Shown here in pieces: positions 1-11,289 of a DNA stretch of 11,289 nt. The translations under genes and the position numbers were made by a program. Under the pieces are notes generated by a model, which saw nothing but the letters and a program-made list of their open reading frames with translations, ran no database searches and was not told the origin of the DNA. The stretch spans positions 1 to 11,289 of the IMG/VR virus record IMGVR_UViG_2645728091_000014. One strand, given 5' to 3'. This stretch comes from a virus. Taxonomy: Duplodnaviria > Heunggongvirae > Uroviricota > Caudoviricetes. Each line of letters opens with the position of its first letter. Positions within the stretch are counted from its first letter, which is position 1.

Positions 1-249
1 ATGCGCACACAGGTTGTATTGCAAAAATGGGGTAATAGCATTGCCCTTCGACTAACGGGAAACCTTAAAACCGTTCCGGGTTTTTCAGTGGGTGATATCG
101 TCAACGTTGAAATTAGTGAAAAGGGGCTTTTTGTAGAAAAGCCTGCACGCCGTCGCCTGAGTGAAGCCGAATTACTCGCCGGGATAACGCCAGTTACAGC
201 GCACGCGGACGAAATTGCCCCCCCATTCAATGAGGAGGTTGATTACTGA
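1..249 (+). CDS. MazE/PemI-family antitoxin (SpoVT/AbrB-type)
   Basis: 82-aa ORF starting with ATG at base 1. N-terminal K-W-G-N-S-x-A-x-R motif is typical of MazE/PemI/ChpS antitoxins. Stop TGA (247-249) overlaps the ATG of the downstream toxin gene (TGATG). Confidence 0.8.
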   Translation: MRTQVVLQKWGNSIALRLTGNLKTVPGFSVGDIVNVEISEKGLFVEKPARRRLSEAELLAGITPVTAHADEIAPPFNEEVDY

Positions 250-593
250 TGTTTGTACCTAAGCGTGGTGATATTTGCTGGCTGGATTTTGAGCCGCAGA
301 AAGGAAAAGAGATCGGAAAGTATCGCCCGGCACTCATACTGTCCCATGAGCAATATAACCGACTCACCGGGCTTGTCATATGCTGCCCCATAAGTACGAG
401 CATACGAAATGCTCCCACAGAAGTTCCGGTAACAAATCTGGACGCCCCCAACGTTGTAGCAACCACACTCATTCAAACCCTTGACTGGCGTCAGCGGAAA
501 GCGCGCTTAATCACAGAGGCAGAAGATGGGGTATTTAATGATGTGCTTGAAAGAGTCATTACCCTGATTGGCGGAGAGCATCTGCTTAAGTAA
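249..593 (+). CDS. MazF/PemK-family mRNA interferase toxin
   Basis: 114-aa ORF with the family-typical N-terminus (P-x-R-G-D-I-x-W-L-D-F-E-P-x-x-G-x-E-x-G-x-x-R-P-A-L-I-L-S), comparable to MazF/ChpBK/PemK. Start overlaps the antitoxin stop. Confidence 0.85.
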   Translation: MFVPKRGDICWLDFEPQKGKEIGKYRPALILSHEQYNRLTGLVICCPISTSIRNAPTEVPVTNLDAPNVVATTLIQTLDWRQRKARLITEAEDGVFNDVLERVITLIGGEHLLK

Positions 594-636: not shown

Positions 637-1908
637 CTATTCTTTCCAGTCAATCCCATCCAGTAAGCACCCTGCTTCATATTGCCCCACCACCCAGTCA
701 AGGTTACAGGACTCATAGAACGCGAGGCGATTATACTGAGGCTCGTTTTTTACCAGGCCACGAACGGAACCACGCTGCCAGTACAGACACAGATTGGCAA
801 GAGGTGTGATCAATACAGCATTGTCCGGGAAAAATGGAACGGTCACAGCCGGGAGATTCCCCAGAACAGGATTTTTAATGATTTCCTCGTTAAGCAAAAT
901 TTCCTGATTCATCTGCGATGGATCAAGACGGTTTATCAAAGGCCATTGCTTACGGACCAGCGTATTGTGACTGCATACGGCCACAATGCCTTCCTGCCAC
1001 TGTTCATCAATCATGGATTGCCAGGCATCCAGAACGAGCGCATCTATCGTATGGTGTGTACCGCGTGTATTACTTTTCGGTGATGAAACAGAAAGGCCGC
1101 TGATAACCCTTCCCGCCGCTTCATTTCGAAACTTCTGCAACCAGCCCACGCCGCAATCATCACGCCCCGGATATGTTCCGGGATCTGATGTATCGGCATA
1201 GTGCGTACCGTTAAAACCAATCTGAATCAAATCCAGCCATTTCCGGCGTTCAAAAGCAGCCCGTGCGCTTCCTTCAAGACCGTTTGCGGATGCGTGAGCA
1301 TCAACATTGTCGTAGTTCAGCGCAAAATCAAAATTAACCTGCTCGCAGCGGTAGCCCCTTGAAACCAGTGAATGCGCCTGTAGTGGCGAACGGCGCGCGT
1401 GAGACGGTGATGTGCGTGCCAGCGGCCCCGAAGCGTCTACCAGCACAACCCGACCTGATATATCCGTAACAGGCACGGGAGTTATTTCAGCAAGGAAATT
1501 TGCCTGCCATCCACTGGCAAGCGTTGCACTCTGGCGGGGAACAGGCTCAACTTCTGATGAATAGCGCGCAGTGTCATCGGAAAAGTGCAAGTCCTTCGGA
1601 TGCTTTCCGGTTATCGACTCGATAGCGAGATTGAAAGCTATCTGAGACTGTTGATTTCGTTGTGACACAACAGAACCAGCAGTGCGATTATAACGCTCAA
1701 TGCCGTTGTTATTGCCCTCACCGTTTGCAGAATGCAGGGTGTGAAGCTCGAGTTCGCGCTCCAGTTTTTGATATTCATTGTCCAGGGCGCGACGGGTTTC
1801 ATCGCTTATGCCTGCTGTATTTGCTTTCAGGCGATTCCGGGACATTGATCCCCTGAGTCGGCTCACTATATCAGCGACGTGCAAATGTGGAATGTTCAGA
1901 CCGCCCAT
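637..1908 (-). CDS. hypothetical protein ORF2 (423 aa), function unknown
   Basis: Long minus-strand ORF. Preferred start is the ATG at 1908-1906, which overlaps the TAA stop of ORF1 (minus-strand TAATG) and is preceded by GGGGGTGG. The track's 470-aa version starts at 2049 and would overlap ORF1 by 141 nt. No Walker A, CxxC or other motif recognised by eye. Confidence 0.7.
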   Translation of the reverse strand: MGGLNIPHLHVADIVSRLRGSMSRNRLKANTAGISDETRRALDNEYQKLERELELHTLHSANGEGNNNGIERYNRTAGSVVSQRNQQSQIAFNLAIESITGKHPKDLHFSDDTARYSSEVEPVPRQSATLASGWQANFLAEITPVPVTDISGRVVLVDASGPLARTSPSHARRSPLQAHSLVSRGYRCEQVNFDFALNYDNVDAHASANGLEGSARAAFERRKWLDLIQIGFNGTHYADTSDPGTYPGRDDCGVGWLQKFRNEAAGRVISGLSVSSPKSNTRGTHHTIDALVLDAWQSMIDEQWQEGIVAVCSHNTLVRKQWPLINRLDPSQMNQEILLNEEIIKNPVLGNLPAVTVPFFPDNAVLITPLANLCLYWQRGSVRGLVKNEPQYNRLAFYESCNLDWVVGQYEAGCLLDGIDWKE

Positions 1909-2618
1909 TACTGCCACCCCCGGCAGAGTTCTCTGCCCTCCGCAAGGTCGCGCATTTTTTCTGAATTCTGTCGCGCTGCGCTCCATTGTACAGGTGAAGG
2001 GGCGCTCCTGATTGCGCAGCTTACTGAATCCGGGAGTTTCTCCGGGCAATAACGCAGCGGGCTGGAGGTGTCGCTTTCGGTATCGTTAATCCGGCCGCGA
2101 ATCATCCCGACACTTTCAGCAGTATCTGCCGCTTTCAGTGTTTCGCATATTTTCTTTTCTGCGTTATACAGCGGCTGGCCAAGCAGCTCACATAAACCAC
2201 GAATCAATAACAGAACAGGGGTCAGCTCGTTAATCAGTTCGGGAAGTGCTTTTGCAAATATCTCTGCCCGCAACTTATTATCAATACTTTCGTAAGCACA
2301 ACCAGCCTCTGCCGCGTTATAACGACACTCCAGTAGCCTGATGCGCGCCTCATCATGCAGCACCCGCAGACGCTCAAGATTTTCTCGCGCCACACCCGCC
2401 TGAATGGATAATTTCGCGGAGGCTTCCGTTTTTACTCCCAGCGCAGACAGGATTGAGTTCTGCCAGTCACGATCGAGAGACTCCAGTTCCCCTTTCGTCT
2501 GTTCGATAGTCGCTTCCAGATTGGTGACTAATGATTCCTGTTCACTGAGTTTTGCCCTGGCAGTATCAAACCGTGCTTTACATACCTGATGTTCGGCGCT
2601 TGCCTGAGTTATATCCAT
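1908..2618 (-). CDS. hypothetical protein ORF1 (236 aa), predicted helical; possibly Psu-like
   Basis: ATG at 2618-2616 preceded by AGGAG with a 6-nt spacer. N-terminal half is rich in heptad-like charged/Leu segments. Weak resemblance to my recollection of P4 Psu (N-terminal FDT, central A-L-x-P-E-L...E-L-T), unverified. Confidence 0.7.
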   Translation of the reverse strand: MDITQASAEHQVCKARFDTARAKLSEQESLVTNLEATIEQTKGELESLDRDWQNSILSALGVKTEASAKLSIQAGVARENLERLRVLHDEARIRLLECRYNAAEAGCAYESIDNKLRAEIFAKALPELINELTPVLLLIRGLCELLGQPLYNAEKKICETLKAADTAESVGMIRGRINDTESDTSSPLRYCPEKLPDSVSCAIRSAPSPVQWSAARQNSEKMRDLAEGRELCRGWQ

Positions 2619-2728: not shown

Positions 2729-2782
2729 TTTCTTATATCGCGGGTGTTAAATCCCGGCATAAACAATCAGGGAGGCAACACG

Positions 2783-3016
2783 ATGAAAAAACAAAAGAAA
2801 ATGCGATGCGTATTACGCTGTATTCGTATCCCGCACGAAATCGACCATAAAATAAATCAGATGTGTGAGGACAGAGAGATGAACTACTCCCAGTGCGTCA
2901 GAATGTTTATCAGTCAGGGAATTAAGGCCGGGGAAACGCAGGAAGAAGACCGTGACGGGCGCAATGTGGCGGGGGATGTGTGGGCCTGGGCAAATGACCA
3001 GAACCACACGACGTAA
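2783..3016 (+). CDS. putative ribbon-helix-helix (Arc/CopG-like) DNA-binding protein
   Basis: 77-aa ORF from ATG 2783 preceded by GGGAGG with a 7-nt spacer (the track's 2744 start is a GTG without an RBS). Residues VLRCIRIP then two helices (EIDHKINQMCEDREM, NYSQCVRMFISQG) fit the beta-strand/helix/helix pattern of Arc/MetJ/CopG repressors. Confidence 0.55.
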   Translation: MKKQKKMRCVLRCIRIPHEIDHKINQMCEDREMNYSQCVRMFISQGIKAGETQEEDRDGRNVAGDVWAWANDQNHTT

Positions 3017-3066: not shown

Positions 3067-3249
3067 CTATGAAGTTTTCGCCTTCCTGCGCTTAGTGATG
3101 CGTACAAACGACTCAAGCGTACAAAAACAAGCCCCACACTCAATATTATTGCACTGGTAATACGTTCTGTAGATGTTTTGTTCGTGTTCTTCCAACGAAC
3201 GACCACGGGTGCGGGCTGAAGCGCCACAGGCCGGGCAAGGGAAAGACAT
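3067..3249 (-). CDS. ogr: Ogr/Delta-family zinc-finger late-gene transcription activator
   Basis: 60-aa ORF with C-P-x-C...A-R-T-R...Y-x-C-x-N-x-x-C...F-x-T-x-E-S, matching the Cys4 pattern and spacing of P2 Ogr / P4 Delta. AGGAG 6 nt upstream of the ATG. Confidence 0.8.
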   Translation of the reverse strand: MSFPCPACGASARTRGRSLEEHEQNIYRTYYQCNNIECGACFCTLESFVRITKRRKAKTS

Positions 3250-3283
3250 ATCACGCTCCTCTTACTGGTGTGAAATTTAACCT

Positions 3284-3289
3284 ATTATA
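3284..3289 (-). promoter_or_regulatory. candidate -10 hexamer (TATAAT on minus strand) for ogr
   Basis: Perfect TATAAT on the minus strand about 35 nt upstream of the ogr ATG. No convincing -35 at 17 bp, so activator dependence is possible. Confidence 0.3.
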
Positions 3290-3610
3290 TCTTCCGCCGC
3301 CTCCTCTGGCTGTATCAAATAAACCCGCAGCAGTCGCCGCGTATTACGCACGGGCGCACCGTTCTCATGCTCACTCGTCACATTCCCCGTATCAGTTCTC
3401 TCTTGCCGTAAGAACGGCTCTGGCTGGCGATAAAACTAACCCGGTCGGGCATTCCCGCAGCCTTTAGCGAAAATGTCATTTACCCCCTGAAACGCGTGCT
3501 GTTCCCCCGTCACCTGCGCGCGAAAAACTCACCGTTTTTTGTGCACGCACGAAATCGCCCTCCGGGCGCGCCAGTACTGGGCCGGATGGGCAAAAAGTTA
3601 CTCTAAAAAA

Positions 3611-3637
3611 TTGTGCAAATTTGTGCACTTTTGTGCA
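3611..3637. repeat. three direct TTGTGCA repeats at exact 10-bp phasing
   Basis: TTGTGCA at 3611-3617, 3621-3627 and 3631-3637; a fourth copy at 3539-3545. Two copies extend to the palindrome GTGCAC. Confidence 0.6.
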
Positions 3638-3862
3638 GATGAACAATAGCGTCAAAAAGAGTGCTTTTGAGAGATTTTTTATGGCAACTGCGCCGCGTGT
3701 ATTACGTTTTTTACCATCCCCGCCGTGCATGTACATACTTCATTTTCTGCCAAACAACAGGGCAACTCCCCGTGACTGACAGCCCCAAAAAATCAATGAT
3801 TAATGTTGCATTTTTGTTAGAGATTAGACCAGTTGTTTTGGGGCTCTGCCTCATAATCCGGT

Positions 3863-4179
3863 GGGGGGTGCGCAAAGCGGTTACAACGGTTACAACAGTT
3901 AAAAACACAACTTAACAGTATGATTTTAATGGATATTGTTTGTAACCGCTTTGCGGTTACACTGCGGTTACAACGGTTACAGGTTTCAAAAAGCACTTTA
4001 TTATCAATCAATTAAAAACTTAACCTGTAACCGCCTGTAACCTAACAAAACGGTTACATGTAACCGCGTTGTAACCGCTTTTGTAACTCATCCGACCAGT
4101 TATAATATATTGATATATAATACAAAAATAAGTAATTCTAAATTTGTAACCGTTGTAACCGCTTTGCGCATCCCCCCCC
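3863..4179. repeat. iteron array bounded by a perfect 27-bp inverted repeat; putative ori/crr-like or att-arm region
   Basis: 3869-3895 (TGCGCAAAGCGGTTACAACGGTTACAA) is the exact reverse complement of 4144-4170, extended by G6 (3863-3868) / C8 (4172-4179). At least 13 GGTTAC/GTAACC hexamers lie between, as direct repeats (3878-3895, 3953-3981, 4024-4043) and palindromes (3941-3961, 4051-4066). An AT-rich stretch sits at 4100-4143 and an IHF-like WATCAANNNNTTR match at 4002-4014. Confidence 0.6.
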
Positions 4180-4366
4180 AAACTTTAGCGCGACCCTTTA
4201 AAATGTTAATTAAACTCACTTACTCTGTCTCATTCTCATTAACTCTCTGTGATTAAAATGTATCTCGTCATTATTTGACTCTTTCTGATAATCAGGGGGC
4301 AAAAAATTGATGGCGGCACCACTGCAATATGGCCACCATTGCATTGCCGTTACCGTTGGTTCTGGC

Positions 4367-4397
4367 CAACAAAAAAGGTCAGCGGGAAACTGACCTC
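4367..4397 (-). terminator. rho-independent terminator downstream of int
   Basis: Stem GGTCAG (4377-4382) / CTGACC (4390-4395) with 7-nt loop. On the minus strand it is followed by TTTTTGTT, 30-60 nt after the int stop. It is also T-rich on the plus side. Confidence 0.6.
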
Positions 4398-4425
4398 TTT
4401 TGCTGTGAATGTAGCGTTCTGCGGG

Positions 4426-5430
4426 TTACTCTGCTGGCTCTTTTTCTTCGATGATCACTATGTTGGCTACCGGGTTAAATCTCATGGCATCTGCCAGATA
4501 ATCCGGTGCAAAATGTGCGTATGCCATAGTCTGCTGAATTGTCGCATGCCCAAGGATTTTTTGTAGCGCAAGAATGTTGCCACCGTTCATCACAAAGTGA
4601 CTGGCGAATGTATGCCGCAATACATGCGCAGCCTGCCCCCTCGGTAAATCGGGTTTTATTTTTTTTAATGCCCGGCAAAACTCTCTATACTTCACATCAA
4701 ACAGTCGCCCGGTTTCTTTTGTTTTTACGGCATCGCATATTTCCTGCGACACAGGCACCGTTCTTTTTCTACCGTTTTTGGTTTCCAGAAACGTTATTCT
4801 ATTATGAACTATTTGCTCTCCATGCAATCTGCTGGCCTCACTCCAGCGGGCTCCGGTACATAGACACAAGAGCGCAACCCTTCGTTGATCTCCATTCAGC
4901 CCGTCAAGCAACAATGTGACCTCGTTTTTTGATAAAAAGGCCATTTCCCGCTGCTTTACATAAAGAACAGGAATACCACGAACCGGATGCTCTGCATCCC
5001 ACAAACCGATCTTTTTCAGGGCTGTAAACATCCCCGATAATCTGTTCATGTATCTGTTTGCTGAGGACGGCTTTAATCCTTCCGCAATTTTCTGCGATCG
5101 CCATGCAATGATTTTTAATTTGTCGAGTTCTACCGCAAACATGTCAGCTCCAAGCTCATTAATAATTTTGCCAAGCTGCTGTTTATCCGTGTTTGCCTTT
5201 CGCCTGTGCTGACCGTGATAAACCCACCACAATTCCAGTAAATCGCTAAGCGTTCTCCGGTCGCGATAGCCCTGTATAAACTCGCGCTTTTCGGCGTTCG
5301 CTATGATGTACCGTTCAGTTGCTGTAGCTATCGATTTTTTGTCAAATATTCTTCTGATGCGCTTCCCTTTACGTCCGCATGGCCTGATATCGAGCAGCCA
5401 CCGCCCATCATGCATCTTTCTGATCGGCAT
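4426..5430 (-). CDS. int: tyrosine recombinase / phage integrase (P2-type)
   Basis: C-terminal H-x-L-R-H-T...L-G-H...Y catalytic motifs. N-terminus (DGRWLLDIRPCGRKGKRIRRIFDKKS) resembles P2/186-type integrases. Preferred ATG at 5430 lies 2 nt after the primase stop with AAGGAGG upstream; the alternative ATG at 5466 adds 12 aa. Confidence 0.9.
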   Translation of the reverse strand: MPIRKMHDGRWLLDIRPCGRKGKRIRRIFDKKSIATATERYIIANAEKREFIQGYRDRRTLSDLLELWWVYHGQHRRKANTDKQQLGKIINELGADMFAVELDKLKIIAWRSQKIAEGLKPSSANRYMNRLSGMFTALKKIGLWDAEHPVRGIPVLYVKQREMAFLSKNEVTLLLDGLNGDQRRVALLCLCTGARWSEASRLHGEQIVHNRITFLETKNGRKRTVPVSQEICDAVKTKETGRLFDVKYREFCRALKKIKPDLPRGQAAHVLRHTFASHFVMNGGNILALQKILGHATIQQTMAYAHFAPDYLADAMRFNPVANIVIIEEKEPAE

Positions 5431-5432
5431 GT

Positions 5433-8102
5433 TTAACGCCCCTCCTTGTAACTGAATATCCGGCATTTCAGTACTTCCGGCTCTCTGGCCTCGGCGACCC
5501 CTCTTCCGGCGTTTGCCTGTCTGGAGACCTCACTACGAATGGTTTTGCGGCCTGTCAAAGGTCGGGAACGTCCTGCTCCGAGCAACTCAATCATTTCGCG
5601 GTCAGTGCGGATCTCCACGCGGTGAATAGCGGCAGCCTGTGCCAGTTGCGGAATACTGATAGCAATCCCCTCGCGGCATCCCTTGCCGTAGTGGTTTACA
5701 CCGTATTTTGTTATGCCGTCCAGGAAGTCGAACGCCTCCCAGAACTCCATCACTTCCGGTAAATCAGCCGCCGCCGCTTTAACCTGCGCTGTTGCCATTT
5801 GTTCCAGTTCCAGACATGTGGCATCAAGCCATTCATCTGGGATATCAATAACGCATTTCAGCGCCCTGACCAGCGCGATAAGTTGTGCGTGATTTTTGGC
5901 GATGCGGGGATGGCGAATATTTTCGCATCCGCAAAGGCGTTCCGTTTCAACTGGAGATACTTCCAGGAACGTTTGCATAATCGCCCGTTCCTGACTTGCC
6001 GCCCGGTGAATAAACCCAGATACCTTCTCGACGGGGTAAAGTTCCAGCCGTCTCGCCGCCAGGCGGGTATCAGGTGAATGGCGTTTTTTATCGGTGTATA
6101 TGCGTATCAGGCGCTCAATAATTGCCGGAGAGGCGTTTACCCGCGCATTCTGCGCAATCACGATAGCGCCCTTAAAATCCGGATCATAGGTGTTGTTATT
6201 GTTGGCCTTAACACCACGAACGCCGATACCACCGCCGTTATAGAGACTTTTCAGGTTATCGAAGTCAAACGCACCTCTTTTTTGCGCATTGTCTCCCCGG
6301 TCCGCTTCAATCAGAACAACAGGTAATCCGGCGACCTGTCCAAAGGTGCGCTTCCAGCCCGCCTCTGATCCTTTGGTTGGATCAACGCCTTCATAGTTGT
6401 CACGACCGCACAGCCGCCAGCAAAAATCAATCAGTGTTGATTTACCCGTTCCGGGCTCCCCGGTGACTTCAAGGAAGGGGAAGGATTCTTCTTTATCCCG
6501 GATTTGTTCGCTGAACAGGGAGCCCAACCAGAAAGCCAGGGTAATAATTCCCTTTTCACCAAAAGCCAGCCAGAGATCTTCCACCCAGGACGCTGTAAAT
6601 TCATCCGGTTTTTTGTAGTTAATCTGTAATGTGGGTTTTTCGCTTAATGGTTTTGCGTTTATGCCATCAATTTCAAAATAATCCTCATCATTGATTTCAT
6701 AAGTTTTACCCTTATAAACGGCAATATCATTAAACAGCCATGCCCCAATTCCCTTGTTGTATCCGATAAAATCCTGACCAATAACCTCTTTTATTGCGGG
6801 AAGGTCATTTTTTATTAATGCGTCAAGCTGCGTAGTCGTTCCGGTATAAATACCGCCTTTTGCCACGTGCAGCAGGCGTTTTTTAAATTCAGATGAGGAT
6901 GTTAATTGTCCTGATGTAAAGGTGTTTTTCACCGTAGCACCATCCGGGAATGTAACGCGGAAGTAATACCATGCTTCATCCGTGTCATTGTTTCGAATGT
7001 AATAAAGCGGCACTGGGTTACAGTTTGCGATTTCTTTTACAGCACCGGATTCCTTAAGTGCAATTTTGCGCGCTTCGTCTTCGTCAACATTTCGCTCATT
7101 AATGACACGCTCAACAGCCTTCATATGGCGCTCAATGTCCAGCTTGAACCAGAAAACACGGTTATCAAAAGTAAAATGAAATTCCTTCCGCTCACGAAAG
7201 GAAAACATTATTAGTGCCTTATCTCTTGGAGATTTCGCCAGCAATAAATCACCGTAATAACGGTATCTTTTCACATCATGGCCACGCAGCTTTCCGGCGA
7301 TGTGTAAATCATTCCAGTCGCGTTTATTGCTGTTTTTACCCGGTAACGCCGCCGCCGTTCTCCAGCCGTCTTCGGCGCTGCGTTCTGCATGTTTTTTCGC
7401 GTAACGTTCACCCGCACGCCCGTTATCCAGGGCCCACACAATAACCGGACGGGGATTATCTCCGCACAGCTTCGCCAGCTCTTCCAGCGCCTTATCAGGG
7501 TAGTTCACGGCAGACATGACAGAAACGGCCGCAATGCCATTCTGGTTAAGGCTGATGGCATCAAAGATGCCCTCACAAATCCAGATTTCTTTGGCCTTGC
7601 TTAAATCTGCTCCCGGATAAGCCCACCACAACCCCTTGTAGCTGCCGGAAAAATTCGCCTTGCGCGCGAAGCGTCCCGGTCGGTCTATGATGCGCTCCCA
7701 CCACACGCCGTCAGCCAGCGTAAAACGCACAGTAGCGGCCTGTTCGCCGTTTTCCTTGTCCTGGTATCGCTCCTGAGTAAATGCGCCCTTCAGTGGCCCC
7801 ACAGCAATATTGCGCGCTTCCTGAAGATAAGCTGCCGCCGCTGCATATGGCTCATCTTTCGTGCTGATATAACGATCTGACCATGATGAAAACACATCCG
7901 GGTAAAGTTCTTTGGTCAGCAGGTCTATACCGCATTTATTTTCGCGCCCACAGTGTACGATGTACGGCCTTTCAAGGCTGGTAAACAACTCTTTCTTTCC
8001 ACATTGCGGACAAACACCATACCGGAGGTAGTTATTTTCTTCTTTGAAGTTGTAATCACGGATAAGACGGTTAATAATCTCTTTTCTGATGTCAGATTTC
8101 AT
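5433..8102 (-). CDS. alpha-like DNA primase-helicase (zinc-binding N-terminus, TOPRIM primase, SF3/D5-type helicase)
   Basis: N-terminal C-P-x-C...H-C...C zinc motif, TOPRIM-like E-G-I-F-D-A and L-D-N-G-R-A-G, and Walker A G-E-P-G-T-G-K-S-T. Preferred ATG at 8102 with GGAG 8 nt upstream; the track start at 8126 is a GTG inside a hairpin. Confidence 0.9.
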   Translation of the reverse strand: MKSDIRKEIINRLIRDYNFKEENNYLRYGVCPQCGKKELFTSLERPYIVHCGRENKCGIDLLTKELYPDVFSSWSDRYISTKDEPYAAAAAYLQEARNIAVGPLKGAFTQERYQDKENGEQAATVRFTLADGVWWERIIDRPGRFARKANFSGSYKGLWWAYPGADLSKAKEIWICEGIFDAISLNQNGIAAVSVMSAVNYPDKALEELAKLCGDNPRPVIVWALDNGRAGERYAKKHAERSAEDGWRTAAALPGKNSNKRDWNDLHIAGKLRGHDVKRYRYYGDLLLAKSPRDKALIMFSFRERKEFHFTFDNRVFWFKLDIERHMKAVERVINERNVDEDEARKIALKESGAVKEIANCNPVPLYYIRNNDTDEAWYYFRVTFPDGATVKNTFTSGQLTSSSEFKKRLLHVAKGGIYTGTTTQLDALIKNDLPAIKEVIGQDFIGYNKGIGAWLFNDIAVYKGKTYEINDEDYFEIDGINAKPLSEKPTLQINYKKPDEFTASWVEDLWLAFGEKGIITLAFWLGSLFSEQIRDKEESFPFLEVTGEPGTGKSTLIDFCWRLCGRDNYEGVDPTKGSEAGWKRTFGQVAGLPVVLIEADRGDNAQKRGAFDFDNLKSLYNGGGIGVRGVKANNNNTYDPDFKGAIVIAQNARVNASPAIIERLIRIYTDKKRHSPDTRLAARRLELYPVEKVSGFIHRAASQERAIMQTFLEVSPVETERLCGCENIRHPRIAKNHAQLIALVRALKCVIDIPDEWLDATCLELEQMATAQVKAAAADLPEVMEFWEAFDFLDGITKYGVNHYGKGCREGIAISIPQLAQAAAIHRVEIRTDREMIELLGAGRSRPLTGRKTIRSEVSRQANAGRGVAEAREPEVLKCRIFSYKEGR

Positions 8103-8115
8103 ATATAAAACTCCA

Positions 8116-8145
8116 CCCCACTGCACCTTTTGCAGTGGGGTTTTT
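8116..8145 (+). terminator. perfect 10-bp GC hairpin plus T-run in the primase 5' leader
   Basis: CCCCACTGCA (8116-8125), loop CCTTT, TGCAGTGGGG (8131-8140), then TTTTT (8141-8145) on the plus strand. On the minus strand the stem is followed by UGGAGUUUUAUAUAUG, which contains the primase RBS and start. Confidence 0.45.
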
Positions 8146-9272: not shown

Positions 9273-9629
9273 TTTGGCGGCTCCTTGATTAAGTTTACGG
9301 AGTCTCGCCAGCACGCTGCTAAACATGGTGGCGGGACGTAACAGGGTTAGCAGACTGGCAATCAAGGAACCAGCGAGCGCAAAGGCTCCCCCATTACGCC
9401 CCGCCATAATACGGGGTAGGGTGGAATTACGGGCACAAAAAAACCGCATTACGGAAATATAGCGGCTACCCGCTTGATTGTTCAGGCTGCTAAACCCGGC
9501 ACCCGCTTTATGAGGTGCGGGCAAACGATACGCCATGACAAAAAAGCGAGTCAAGCAATATTGCAAATTATTTTTGCTCACTTGCGCTGAGTGATTGATT
9601 TTAAAGAGTAAAAAAGCCATAATCATTTC

Positions 9630-10239: not shown

Positions 10240-11289
10240 CTGAGATGATGCTTTAATCCATCTTGATATAGTACTTTTATCAAAGCGCATATTGAGTCCT
10301 GCCTCTCTTGCTTCCGCGGTCAATATATCAGCAAGTTTTACCGGATTGTTTTCGAGTTCTTTATAATGAATAACAAGCATCGCACGAAAAAAATCCTTCA
10401 TTGTTTTAGATAATCGTTCTATATTGTTTTTATTGGTGCATATGTCTTTCTCTCCATCCTCAGAACTTAATATATTGTTACCCGCACACAAATATAAAGT
10501 ATCTGCCAATGGATTAACATAATCTTTTCTTAACTCGCTATTGGAGTTTGTAGCATTTTGTATTTTTAAAAAATCATTCTTTAAGATATATAAATCACCA
10601 ATATCAAAAGAAACATCCTCAGTAACAATTAGTCCTATATGTATATCAACGTCAGAAGCAATTATAATATTGCTATTAATTATTCGGTTGGCTTTAAACT
10701 TCTTATTAAAATCATAGTTGGCAAAAAAACTTCCCCCCAAAGCGAAAATGCCGCCTATTTCAACAAAATACTTATGGTATTTTTCTTGAATACCTTTAAA
10801 TACTGGTGGCACAACTGCCACAGCTCTTTCATCCGTTGCTATTCGATATACACTATATATGTGATAATTTTCCCCATAATATACCCCCCTGTTATAATAA
10901 TTTAACAAAGCAAATGCAGTATCAATTGCTATGTCACCAAATTTGGGCGTTACATATGAATGACTTAGAGATTCGCACATTGAATCAAATATAATTCTCG
11001 ACTTGGTTTTTATATAATTAAAACCATGGTGTTCTGCCGCCCTTTCTGAAATGGCATCAAGATCAGATAACCGTGATTTACACGGTTCTGAATCCATAAA
11101 CTTACGCAGACAATCGAAATTAACCACATCTTTTTCATCTGGGATATTTAATACTCCATATGCAGATTCAATTTTTATACAAATACGAATGCAGCCTGTC
11201 ACAGCCCAATGAATAAGATCGTCAATATCGCAGTCTAATAACTTTGCCGCGCGCTCAATAGGATAGTAATCTCTTAGTGGTAACGTCAT
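10237..11289 (-). CDS. hypothetical protein (350 aa), AT-rich, HTH-like segments at both termini
   Basis: ATG is the last three bases of the window, so the true start may lie upstream. N-terminal Y-P-I-E-R-A-A-K-L-L-D-C-D-I-D-D-L-I-H-W and C-terminal A-D-I-L-T-A-E-A-R-E-A-G-L-N-M-R-F-D-K-S-T-I-S-R-W-I-K look like helix-turn-helix elements. A weak G-G-S ... S-D-V-D-I stretch was noted. Confidence 0.65.
   Translation of the reverse strand: MTLPLRDYYPIERAAKLLDCDIDDLIHWAVTGCIRICIKIESAYGVLNIPDEKDVVNFDCLRKFMDSEPCKSRLSDLDAISERAAEHHGFNYIKTKSRIIFDSMCESLSHSYVTPKFGDIAIDTAFALLNYYNRGVYYGENYHIYSVYRIATDERAVAVVPPVFKGIQEKYHKYFVEIGGIFALGGSFFANYDFNKKFKANRIINSNIIIASDVDIHIGLIVTEDVSFDIGDLYILKNDFLKIQNATNSNSELRKDYVNPLADTLYLCAGNNILSSEDGEKDICTNKNNIERLSKTMKDFFRAMLVIHYKELENNPVKLADILTAEAREAGLNMRFDKSTISRWIKASSQ

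Follow-up and report, generated by a model that had tools for sequence, protein, structure and literature searches.

Phased TTGTGCA repeats in a cos-homologous region shared by a P4-like satellite and P88-like phages: a candidate terminase recognition array

The initiation site of phage lambda, cosB, is on the side packaged first and carries the elements R3, R2 and R1 for the small terminase subunit gpNu1, together with the IHF site I1, with a further element, R4, across cosN. Bending by IHF is required for lambda cosB. P2 is packaged from its Q end. A 55-bp core has been described for the cos site of P2 and P4 (Ziermann & Calendar 1990, as cited in PMC3931495, PMC5694545 and PMC9122126), and, according to one analysis, P4-like satellites are homologous to P2-like phages nowhere but in cos (PMC9122126).

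The DNA examined here (the window, meaning the whole stretch of 11,289 nucleotides that was analysed) is a P4-like phage satellite of E. coli and is 99.9% identical to an E. coli chromosomal island located between hpt and gcd (Table 1). No terminase-like ORF was recognised among the PGAP names for the island or by Pfam searches with 10 window ORFs. The original prediction had placed a set of phased repeats in about 1.2 kb lacking a protein gene between int and ogr. The absence of a supported gene from 3250 to 4425 stands, as the 86-aa ORF called there by PGAP was rejected (see below), but the ‘int’ in question is a second, P88-int-like recombinase, and the terminal integrase of the island lies outside the window.

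Table 1. Coordinates of the features discussed, numbered from the first nucleotide of the window.
Feature	Positions	Strand	Remarks
mazEF	1-593		
P2-family major capsid gene	637-1908	-	Pfam
236-aa ORF	1908-2618	-	
90-aa ORF	2744-3016	+	
Ogr/Delta zinc-finger gene	3067-3249	-	Pfam
Gene-poor stretch, ~1.2 kb	3250-4425		no supported gene
Segment compared with helper consensus	3471-3510		satellite identity 0.88
86-aa ORF (PGAP)	3476-3736	-	spurious
cos-homology region, satellite and P88-like helpers	3495-3637		blastn, P88 whole-genome comparison, multi-genus alignment
Left conserved block GCTGTTCCCCCGTCACCTGCGCGCG	3498-3522	+	almost unchanged among helpers and satellites from many genera; resembles P2 CCGTCA..GCGCGC
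cosN, candidate A	3523-3541		positional homology to P2; assumes 19 nt as in P2
Segment compared with helper consensus	3533-3551		satellite identity 0.89
Copy 0, TTGTGCA	3539-3545	+	T-run before it
GC-rich centre, short palindromes	3546-3592		sequence lineage-specific, length conserved; ends in semi-conserved GGGC.G.A.GGGCA
Segment compared with helper consensus	3552-3586		satellite identity 0.34, no indels
Segment compared with helper consensus	3605-3637		satellite identity 0.97
A6 tract	3605-3610	+	directly before copy 1; read from sequence; information digits 8-9 of 9 (109 sequences)
Copy 1, TTGTGCA	3611-3617	+	information digit 9 of 9 throughout
Copy 2, TTGTGCA	3621-3627	+	information digits 9,9,9,9,9,9,8
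Copy 3, TTGTGCA	3631-3637	+	right-hand border of cos homology
Tyrosine recombinase	4426-5430	-	Pfam
Large primase	5433-8126	-	
C4/isrK-type RNA	9324-9518	-	followed by icd-like and HTH genes
Terminal integrase	outside window		adjoining gcd

Several other features of the island were recorded. The tyrosine recombinase gene lies directly downstream of the primase gene, is 74% identical in the DNA of its 3' part to the P88 integrase gene (4466-4626 versus P88 133-293), and is kept in related satellites at ~53% amino-acid identity. The major capsid protein of the satellite (423 aa, with PF05125 over residues 120-419 and an N-terminal extension of ~120 aa) is only 35% identical to P88 gpN; to our knowledge, classical P4 has no capsid gene. 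Upstream of the capsid gene, the same operon encodes the 236-aa protein, which has no Pfam match, and satellites of other genera keep both proteins. The mazE/mazF-type toxin-antitoxin pair, located at the end of the island nearest hpt, is reminiscent of the defence/accessory hotspot described in P4-like satellites (PMC9122126), but the capsid operon and ogr separate it from cos. GGTTACA(A/C)(C/G) iterons, pointing either way, are densely clustered at 3860-4180, and a 36-nt inverted repeat with 94% complementarity (3860-3895 and 4144-4179) encloses them. Given its position beside the genes for the recombinase and primase, this cluster is probably a replication element of the ori/crr kind; its iterons differ in sequence from those of P4 itself. 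The octamer GTATTACG occurs seven times, counting both strands (2669, 2697, 2720, 2810, 3012, 3341 and 3699), compared with 0.3 expected and with no such count in 200 shuffles. The sites are grouped near the 90-aa ORF, upstream of both the capsid operon and ogr, and immediately right of cos, and the octamer is a candidate operator of a satellite regulator.

The repeats themselves had been described as three copies of TTGTGCA at exactly 10-bp spacing, with a fourth about 70 bp upstream, presenting sites on one face of the helix. The coordinates and spacing of the three copies (3611, 3621 and 3631) were confirmed, the fourth (copy 0) begins 72 bp upstream of copy 1, and the placement on one face agrees with the exact 10-bp period found in every relative. 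All four copies lie on the plus strand, and TTGTGCA occurs nowhere else in the window. The count alone is ordinary for this window (2.6 expected; at least four in 52 of 200 shuffles). The trio, in turn, is the sole triple of any 7-mer with a period of 9-12 bp, and no triple of this kind arose in 3000 first-order Markov simulations of the window.

To locate related DNA, positions 3480-3800 were used as the query of a sensitive blastn search against 5426 complete E. coli genomes. Matches at ~80% identity were obtained in 1173 genomes, nearly all covering only query positions 1-159 (window 3480-3638). Overall, the similarity in E. coli begins at ~3471 and stops at the end of copy 3, in target DNA that is unannotated. 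In two E. coli examples, the match lies just past the portal gene of a P2-like prophage, before variable genes and a replication endonuclease gene. Matches in the phage collection (P88-like phages of Xuanwuvirus, the Enterobacter phage phiT5282H of Novemvirus and a Klebsiella element) are likewise always downstream of the portal gene. According to the P2 reference map, cos in the P2 family lies in this interval, bounded by portal gene Q and by the variable region that precedes gpA.

Comparison of the whole P88 genome with the window gave the same region as the main match (3478-3637, 81%), in line with what PMC9122126 describes for P4 and P2. The only other matches were two short ones, in the 3' part of the recombinase gene and in a 27-nt stretch of the RNA region, and clusters of TTGTGCA occur in the P88 genome only at cos. 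We conclude that the repeats almost certainly belong to a region homologous to helper cos, and that this region is very probably a functional cos. The 27-nt stretch (9492-9518, in the isrK/C4-type RNA region) is 92.6% identical to P88 5028-5054, beside the P88 ‘derepression protein’ gene, and may be an antisense target or a satellite-helper immunity element. In one P88-like prophage (L064; IMG/VR UViG 2681813261_000011), cos is interrupted after CCCCCGTCACCTGG by a sequence starting GGTAATGACTCCAACTTATTGATAGTG, which we take to be the end of IS1; an IS1-like insertion at this place would inactivate cos.

The region shares several properties with the cos of P2 and P4. In the helper it occupies a non-coding stretch that closely follows the 3' end of portal gene Q and precedes a variable hotspot, and it constitutes the DNA segment common to a terminase-less satellite and its helper. 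As in P2, a GCGCGC preceded by CCGTCA lies on the Q side, and in P2 this sequence abuts the cohesive end. The homology also ends on the far side in both systems with an A/T-rich run followed by TGCA, which is TTTTAATGCA in P2/P4 and TTGTGCA in the P88-type family. There are differences, however: neither the 55-bp core of P2/P4 cos nor its 19-nt end GGCGAGGCGGGGAAAGCAC (GGCG(A/T)GGCGGGG...) has detectable homology in the region. A blastn-short comparison of the P2 and P4 cos junctions with the window gave only chance-level matches of 8-13 nt, and at E<1e-3 the window and P4 show no similarity in nucleotide sequence. Moreover, the segment common to satellite and helper spans ~143-167 bp, compared with ~55 bp, and it includes a triple phased repeat and a fourth copy that P2 and P4 lack.

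The terminase subunits of P88 are themselves diverged from those of P2, with only 37% identity for gpM and 44% for gpP. A separate cos specificity would fit both this divergence and the lack of a P2/P4 core in the window. Given these two differences, sequence comparison points to a different type of cos that would serve a different group of helpers, namely P88-like Peduoviridae (Xuanwuvirus, Novemvirus and relatives).

Conservation was assessed with two scans whose anchors are independent of the repeats, and all statements on conservation rest on them. The anchors TTTACCCCCTGAAAC and TTCCCCCGTCACCTGCGCGC gathered cos regions from 75 and 110 unique related sequences, respectively. With the first anchor, copies 1 and 2 were found to be exact in all 75 sequences, copy 0 in 72 and copy 3 in 57. 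Variants of copy 3 comprise TCGTGCA (a T-to-C change at position 2; 14 of 75), TTGTGCG, TCTTGCA and TTTTGCG, and among metagenome contigs copy 3 is exact in 75 of 98. With the second anchor, the array was found in 109 of 110 sequences, with a period that is always exactly 10 bp. Copies 0 and 1 are 72 bp apart in 107 of the 109, with 71 bp in the two exceptions, and the 72-bp distance recurs in 91 of 98 metagenome contigs. This spacing holds even though the intervening 35 bp are just 34% identical between satellite and helper, and the satellite-type GC-rich centre occurs in only 56 E. coli genomes.

The consensus of the right-hand block is CGTTCAAAAAAATTGTGCAAATTTGTGCACTATTGTGCAGTAAA, with information per position (scale 0-9) of 34388899999899999999869999998665978999710001. 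In these 109 sequences TTGTGC is near-invariant (9 of 9), the 3-bp spacers score 5-8, and values fall to 0-1 right after copy 3. Among helpers, column conservation is 0.98 over 3605-3637 and drops to 0.48 at 3638. The same border is seen in a diverged satellite (L133), which is ~96% identical to the window from the ogr gene to 3637 and ~45% identical, with indels, past that point. Four elements are conserved across genera: the left block GCTGTTCCCCCGTCACCTGCGCGCG, a T-run followed by GTGCA (3535-3545), GGGC.G.A.GGG.A.AAA (~3578-3596), and A6-7 followed by the triple repeat (3603-3637). At the level of sequence, this conservation shows that the repeats exceed chance, and they form the outermost and most strongly conserved module of the region. 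As in a lambda-type cosB, multiple copies of an element are conserved as a motif (four copies, with spacings of 10, 10 and 72 bp).

The original prediction regarded the pattern as typical of cooperative regulator binding. The part of this proposal that concerns protein recognition is retained, since the motif is kept while the spacers are free, but the part that concerns regulation or transcription is not. If the array were an operator for a helper or satellite transcription factor (Cox/Apl-type, Ogr/Delta, AlpA or RHH-like) that switches satellite genes, three direct repeats at 10 bp, located upstream of the minus-strand ogr-like gene, would be a fitting architecture. P4 itself carries three direct repeats with a 10-bp period, the ori ‘type 2’ repeats CACTTAAAGT/CATTTAAAGC/CACTTAAAGC (P4 9176-9205), which match the P2 Cox box TTAAAG(N)CA, and P2 Cox binds direct repeats phased at ~10 bp at P4 P_LL. 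The two arrays are thus alike in lying in a satellite and in having a helper protein as reader, although in the present case that reader is a candidate. They differ in motif (TTGTGCA is unrelated to the Cox box, TTAAAG.CA in P4) and in place, as the P4 Cox boxes lie at P_LL/ori rather than at cos. The helper counterpart of the P4 Cox boxes would be the C/cox switch, and in P88 neither this switch (1451-1578) nor the late promoters have a TTGTGCA cluster.

Similar considerations apply to Ogr/Delta. Late promoters activated by these proteins have a TGT-N12-ACA dyad ~55 bp upstream of the promoter. This dyad is absent from 3480-3700, its one occurrence in the window being at 10890, and a scan of both strands of the same interval gave no sigma-70-like promoter. 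Furthermore, what follows the array on its right varies among helpers, with genes in either orientation, and there is therefore no common regulated gene. The array is also kept in helpers that lack the regulators of the satellite. Thus, the locus has the properties of neither a Cox/Apl-type operator array nor an Ogr/Delta-activated late promoter, and the proposal that Ogr, AlpA or the RHH protein binds the repeats is left unsupported. A search of P2-like helpers for the phased motif, which had been suggested for DNA upstream of late operons, did find it, but at cos beside portal gene Q. We consider an operator function improbable.

Two further explanations would make the repeats incidental or assign them to replication. 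PGAP calls the 86-aa ORF in some genomes, and a pattern scan identified GTGCA-N6-TGCAC followed by Ts, which is terminator-like on both strands, as might be expected if the region were coding, a terminator or a structured RNA. The ORF was rejected on several grounds: it has no Pfam match and is absent from the annotation of other genomes, the diverged satellite L133 has lost 30 nt of its N-terminal half and shows no conservation there, and its C-terminal half is homologous to unannotated, non-coding helper cos DNA. A period of 10 bp is not a codon period and is incompatible with an amino-acid repeat. The RNA folds no better than shuffled sequences (z of -0.24 and +0.10), and Rfam gave no match at the array region. 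This explanation is extremely unlikely.

Alternatively, the repeats might be part of a replication origin, as DnaA-box-like elements or auxiliary iterons beside the GGTTACA cluster at 3860-4180. The array is ~225 bp from this cluster, and copy 1 with its spacer (TGTGCAAAT, read from the sequence) agrees with the reverse DnaA box TGTGNAWAA in all but one of 9 positions. This resemblance is confined to one of the three copies, however, and helper cos sites, around which there are no iterons, keep the array. In addition, the DNA between array and iterons is unconserved even inside the satellite family. A role in replication therefore seems very remote.

We favour the hypothesis that the TTGTGCA repeats are terminase recognition elements analogous to cosB, which is likely but well short of certain. 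The array would then be the docking site of the packaging enzyme of the helper, and it is probably this rather than a gene-regulation switch. Under this hypothesis, a satellite in which no terminase is recognised would carry a ~143-bp copy of helper cos for the purpose of being packaged. The three copies, in the same orientation and on the same face of the helix, together with copy 0 across the GC-rich centre, would be the sites recognised by helper terminase. The helper encodes a small subunit of the gpM type (PF05944) and a gpP-type large subunit with an N-terminal HTH; this small subunit, this HTH or the two together would be the reader. Several protomers might bind along one face of a duplex bent by A/T tracts, much as at the R sites of lambda cosB, and thereby place the nuclease at a fixed distance, such that cosN would be nicked. 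With all four copies pointing the same way, the array could also fix the direction of packaging. Phased units on the same face with free spacers, a partner at a fixed 72 bp across a centre of variable sequence but constant length, and an abrupt stop in conservation are the features that an array for multiple protomers of a packaging enzyme would be expected to show.

The analogy with lambda cosB has limits. In both cases several copies of a short element, a candidate recognition element in the present region, lie beside the nick site, with a further copy on the opposite side, and bent DNA is presumed. However, lambda R sites are 16 bp long, are in mixed orientation, have no 10-bp period and need IHF, whereas the units described here are 7 bp long, strictly direct and exactly 10 bp apart, with no IHF-like site seen by eye. 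If the P2 direction of packaging applies, the array would be on the last-packaged side, and it may then function in the recognition of cos on circles or in termination, and not as a strict cosB. A host factor or another helper factor may instead read the motif.

In an alternative explanation, the array belongs to cos but is read by a DNA-bending accessory factor of the host or helper, or acts simply as curved DNA, with the terminase making its contacts elsewhere, for example at 3498-3522. Phased A/T tracts (A6, A3T3 and T4) alternate with the motif at roughly helical spacing, which suggests intrinsic bending and is favourable to this alternative, as is the fact that the block at 3498-3522 is as conserved as the array and the precedent of IHF at lambda cosB. 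Curvature alone, though, would not hold G, T, G and C invariant while spacer bases drift, and neither an IHF-like consensus (WATCAANNNNTTR) nor a CRP site (TGTGA-N6-TCACA) was seen by eye in the block. We regard this alternative as unlikely, and recognition by terminase remains the preferred reading.

The P2/P4 junction sequences place the P2 nick one base after GCGCGC, followed by the 19-nt end, and the homology to P2 (CCGTCA..GCGCGC) would put the top-strand nick of the present region at 3522|3523. The contigs L272 and L328, which come independently from metagenomes, begin at positions equivalent to 3522 and 3523 of the window. Contig ends also occur elsewhere: three at 3558-3560 and one at 3575 fall in the GC-rich centre, a rival position for cosN, whereas those at 3603/3604 and 3622-3646 coincide with the edges of the conserved block and look like branch points of assembly graphs. 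The start of the virion-derived GenBank record LR595891 (P88_4B11; equivalent to 3592|3593) was considered as a mapped cos end and rejected, as its nucleotide 1 was picked relative to reference genomes. Our best guess is that cleavage occurs just to the right of GCGCGC(G), at ~3523-3541, with the GC-rich centre as the alternative. If the P2-like position holds, copy 0 would straddle the second nick, and the triple repeat would be ~70 bp away, on the side that corresponds to the right arm common to P2 and P4.

The array is distributed beyond E. coli. A pattern scan of one genome per species, which by design selects on copies 1 and 2, gave 73 matches, with ~69 estimated by chance and ~50 judged unrelated. 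Approximately 23 of the 73 are genuine, with a third copy and copy 0 in register, and almost all of these are from Enterobacterales. Helpers with the array, recognised by portal, large terminase and gpA genes nearby, were found in Salmonella, Citrobacter, Pantoea, Mixta, Kosakonia, Enterobacter, Klebsiella, Erwinia and Izhakiella. Satellites with the array were found in Kluyvera, Erwinia dacicola, Apirhabdus, Izhakiella and an Escherichia species, as well as on a 12.2-kb contig. The related satellites have the gene order of the window (capsid, hyp236, ogr, cos, int346, primase), with proteins that are only 28-59% identical. In Izhakiella australiensis, a satellite and a helper are both present and have the same cos pairing.

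Two observations were made in the course of this survey. The sequence QAKE01000006.1 (L170/L183; 12,723 bp, from a Bacillota MAG bin) carries the cos array twice, 12,207 bp apart, along with primase, int346, ogr and capsid genes, and it is probably a circular satellite of 12.2 kb with a terminal overlap that was assigned to the wrong bin. In three Klebsiella helpers (L130, L176 and L197), a second TGTGCA lies 9-10 bp downstream of copy 0 (TTTTTGTGCACTTTGTGCAG), giving a short phased pair on the left side.

Taken as a whole, we lean towards a broader proposal, held with less assurance than terminase recognition itself: that the array marks a second cos specificity group of Peduoviridae, composed of a terminase pad of direct repeats at 10 bp and a partner copy 72 bp across cosN. 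This group would have been taken up by P4-like satellites that encode a capsid, and it, rather than the P2/P4 55-bp core, would set the pairing of satellite and helper across Enterobacterales. Such a group is not described in the literature searched, in which the repeat sequence was not found either.

The general picture of satellite biology is unchanged by this proposal. In practical terms, GCTGTTCCCCCGTCACCTGCGCGCG, N88 and three TTGTGCA at 10 bp form a signature for locating cos, at places where annotation is blank or shows a spurious ORF. The scope takes in a satellite lineage with its own capsid gene as well as the P88-like prophages, and approximately one-fifth of complete E. coli genomes contain the cos of these prophages. 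The locus also offers a tractable system for learning how a P2-type terminase gauges the distance to its cut site. Because a satellite spreads only with helpers whose terminase accepts its cos, the type of cos sets who parasitises whom, and the array is a compact and easily mutated candidate for the determinant of this satellite-helper specificity.
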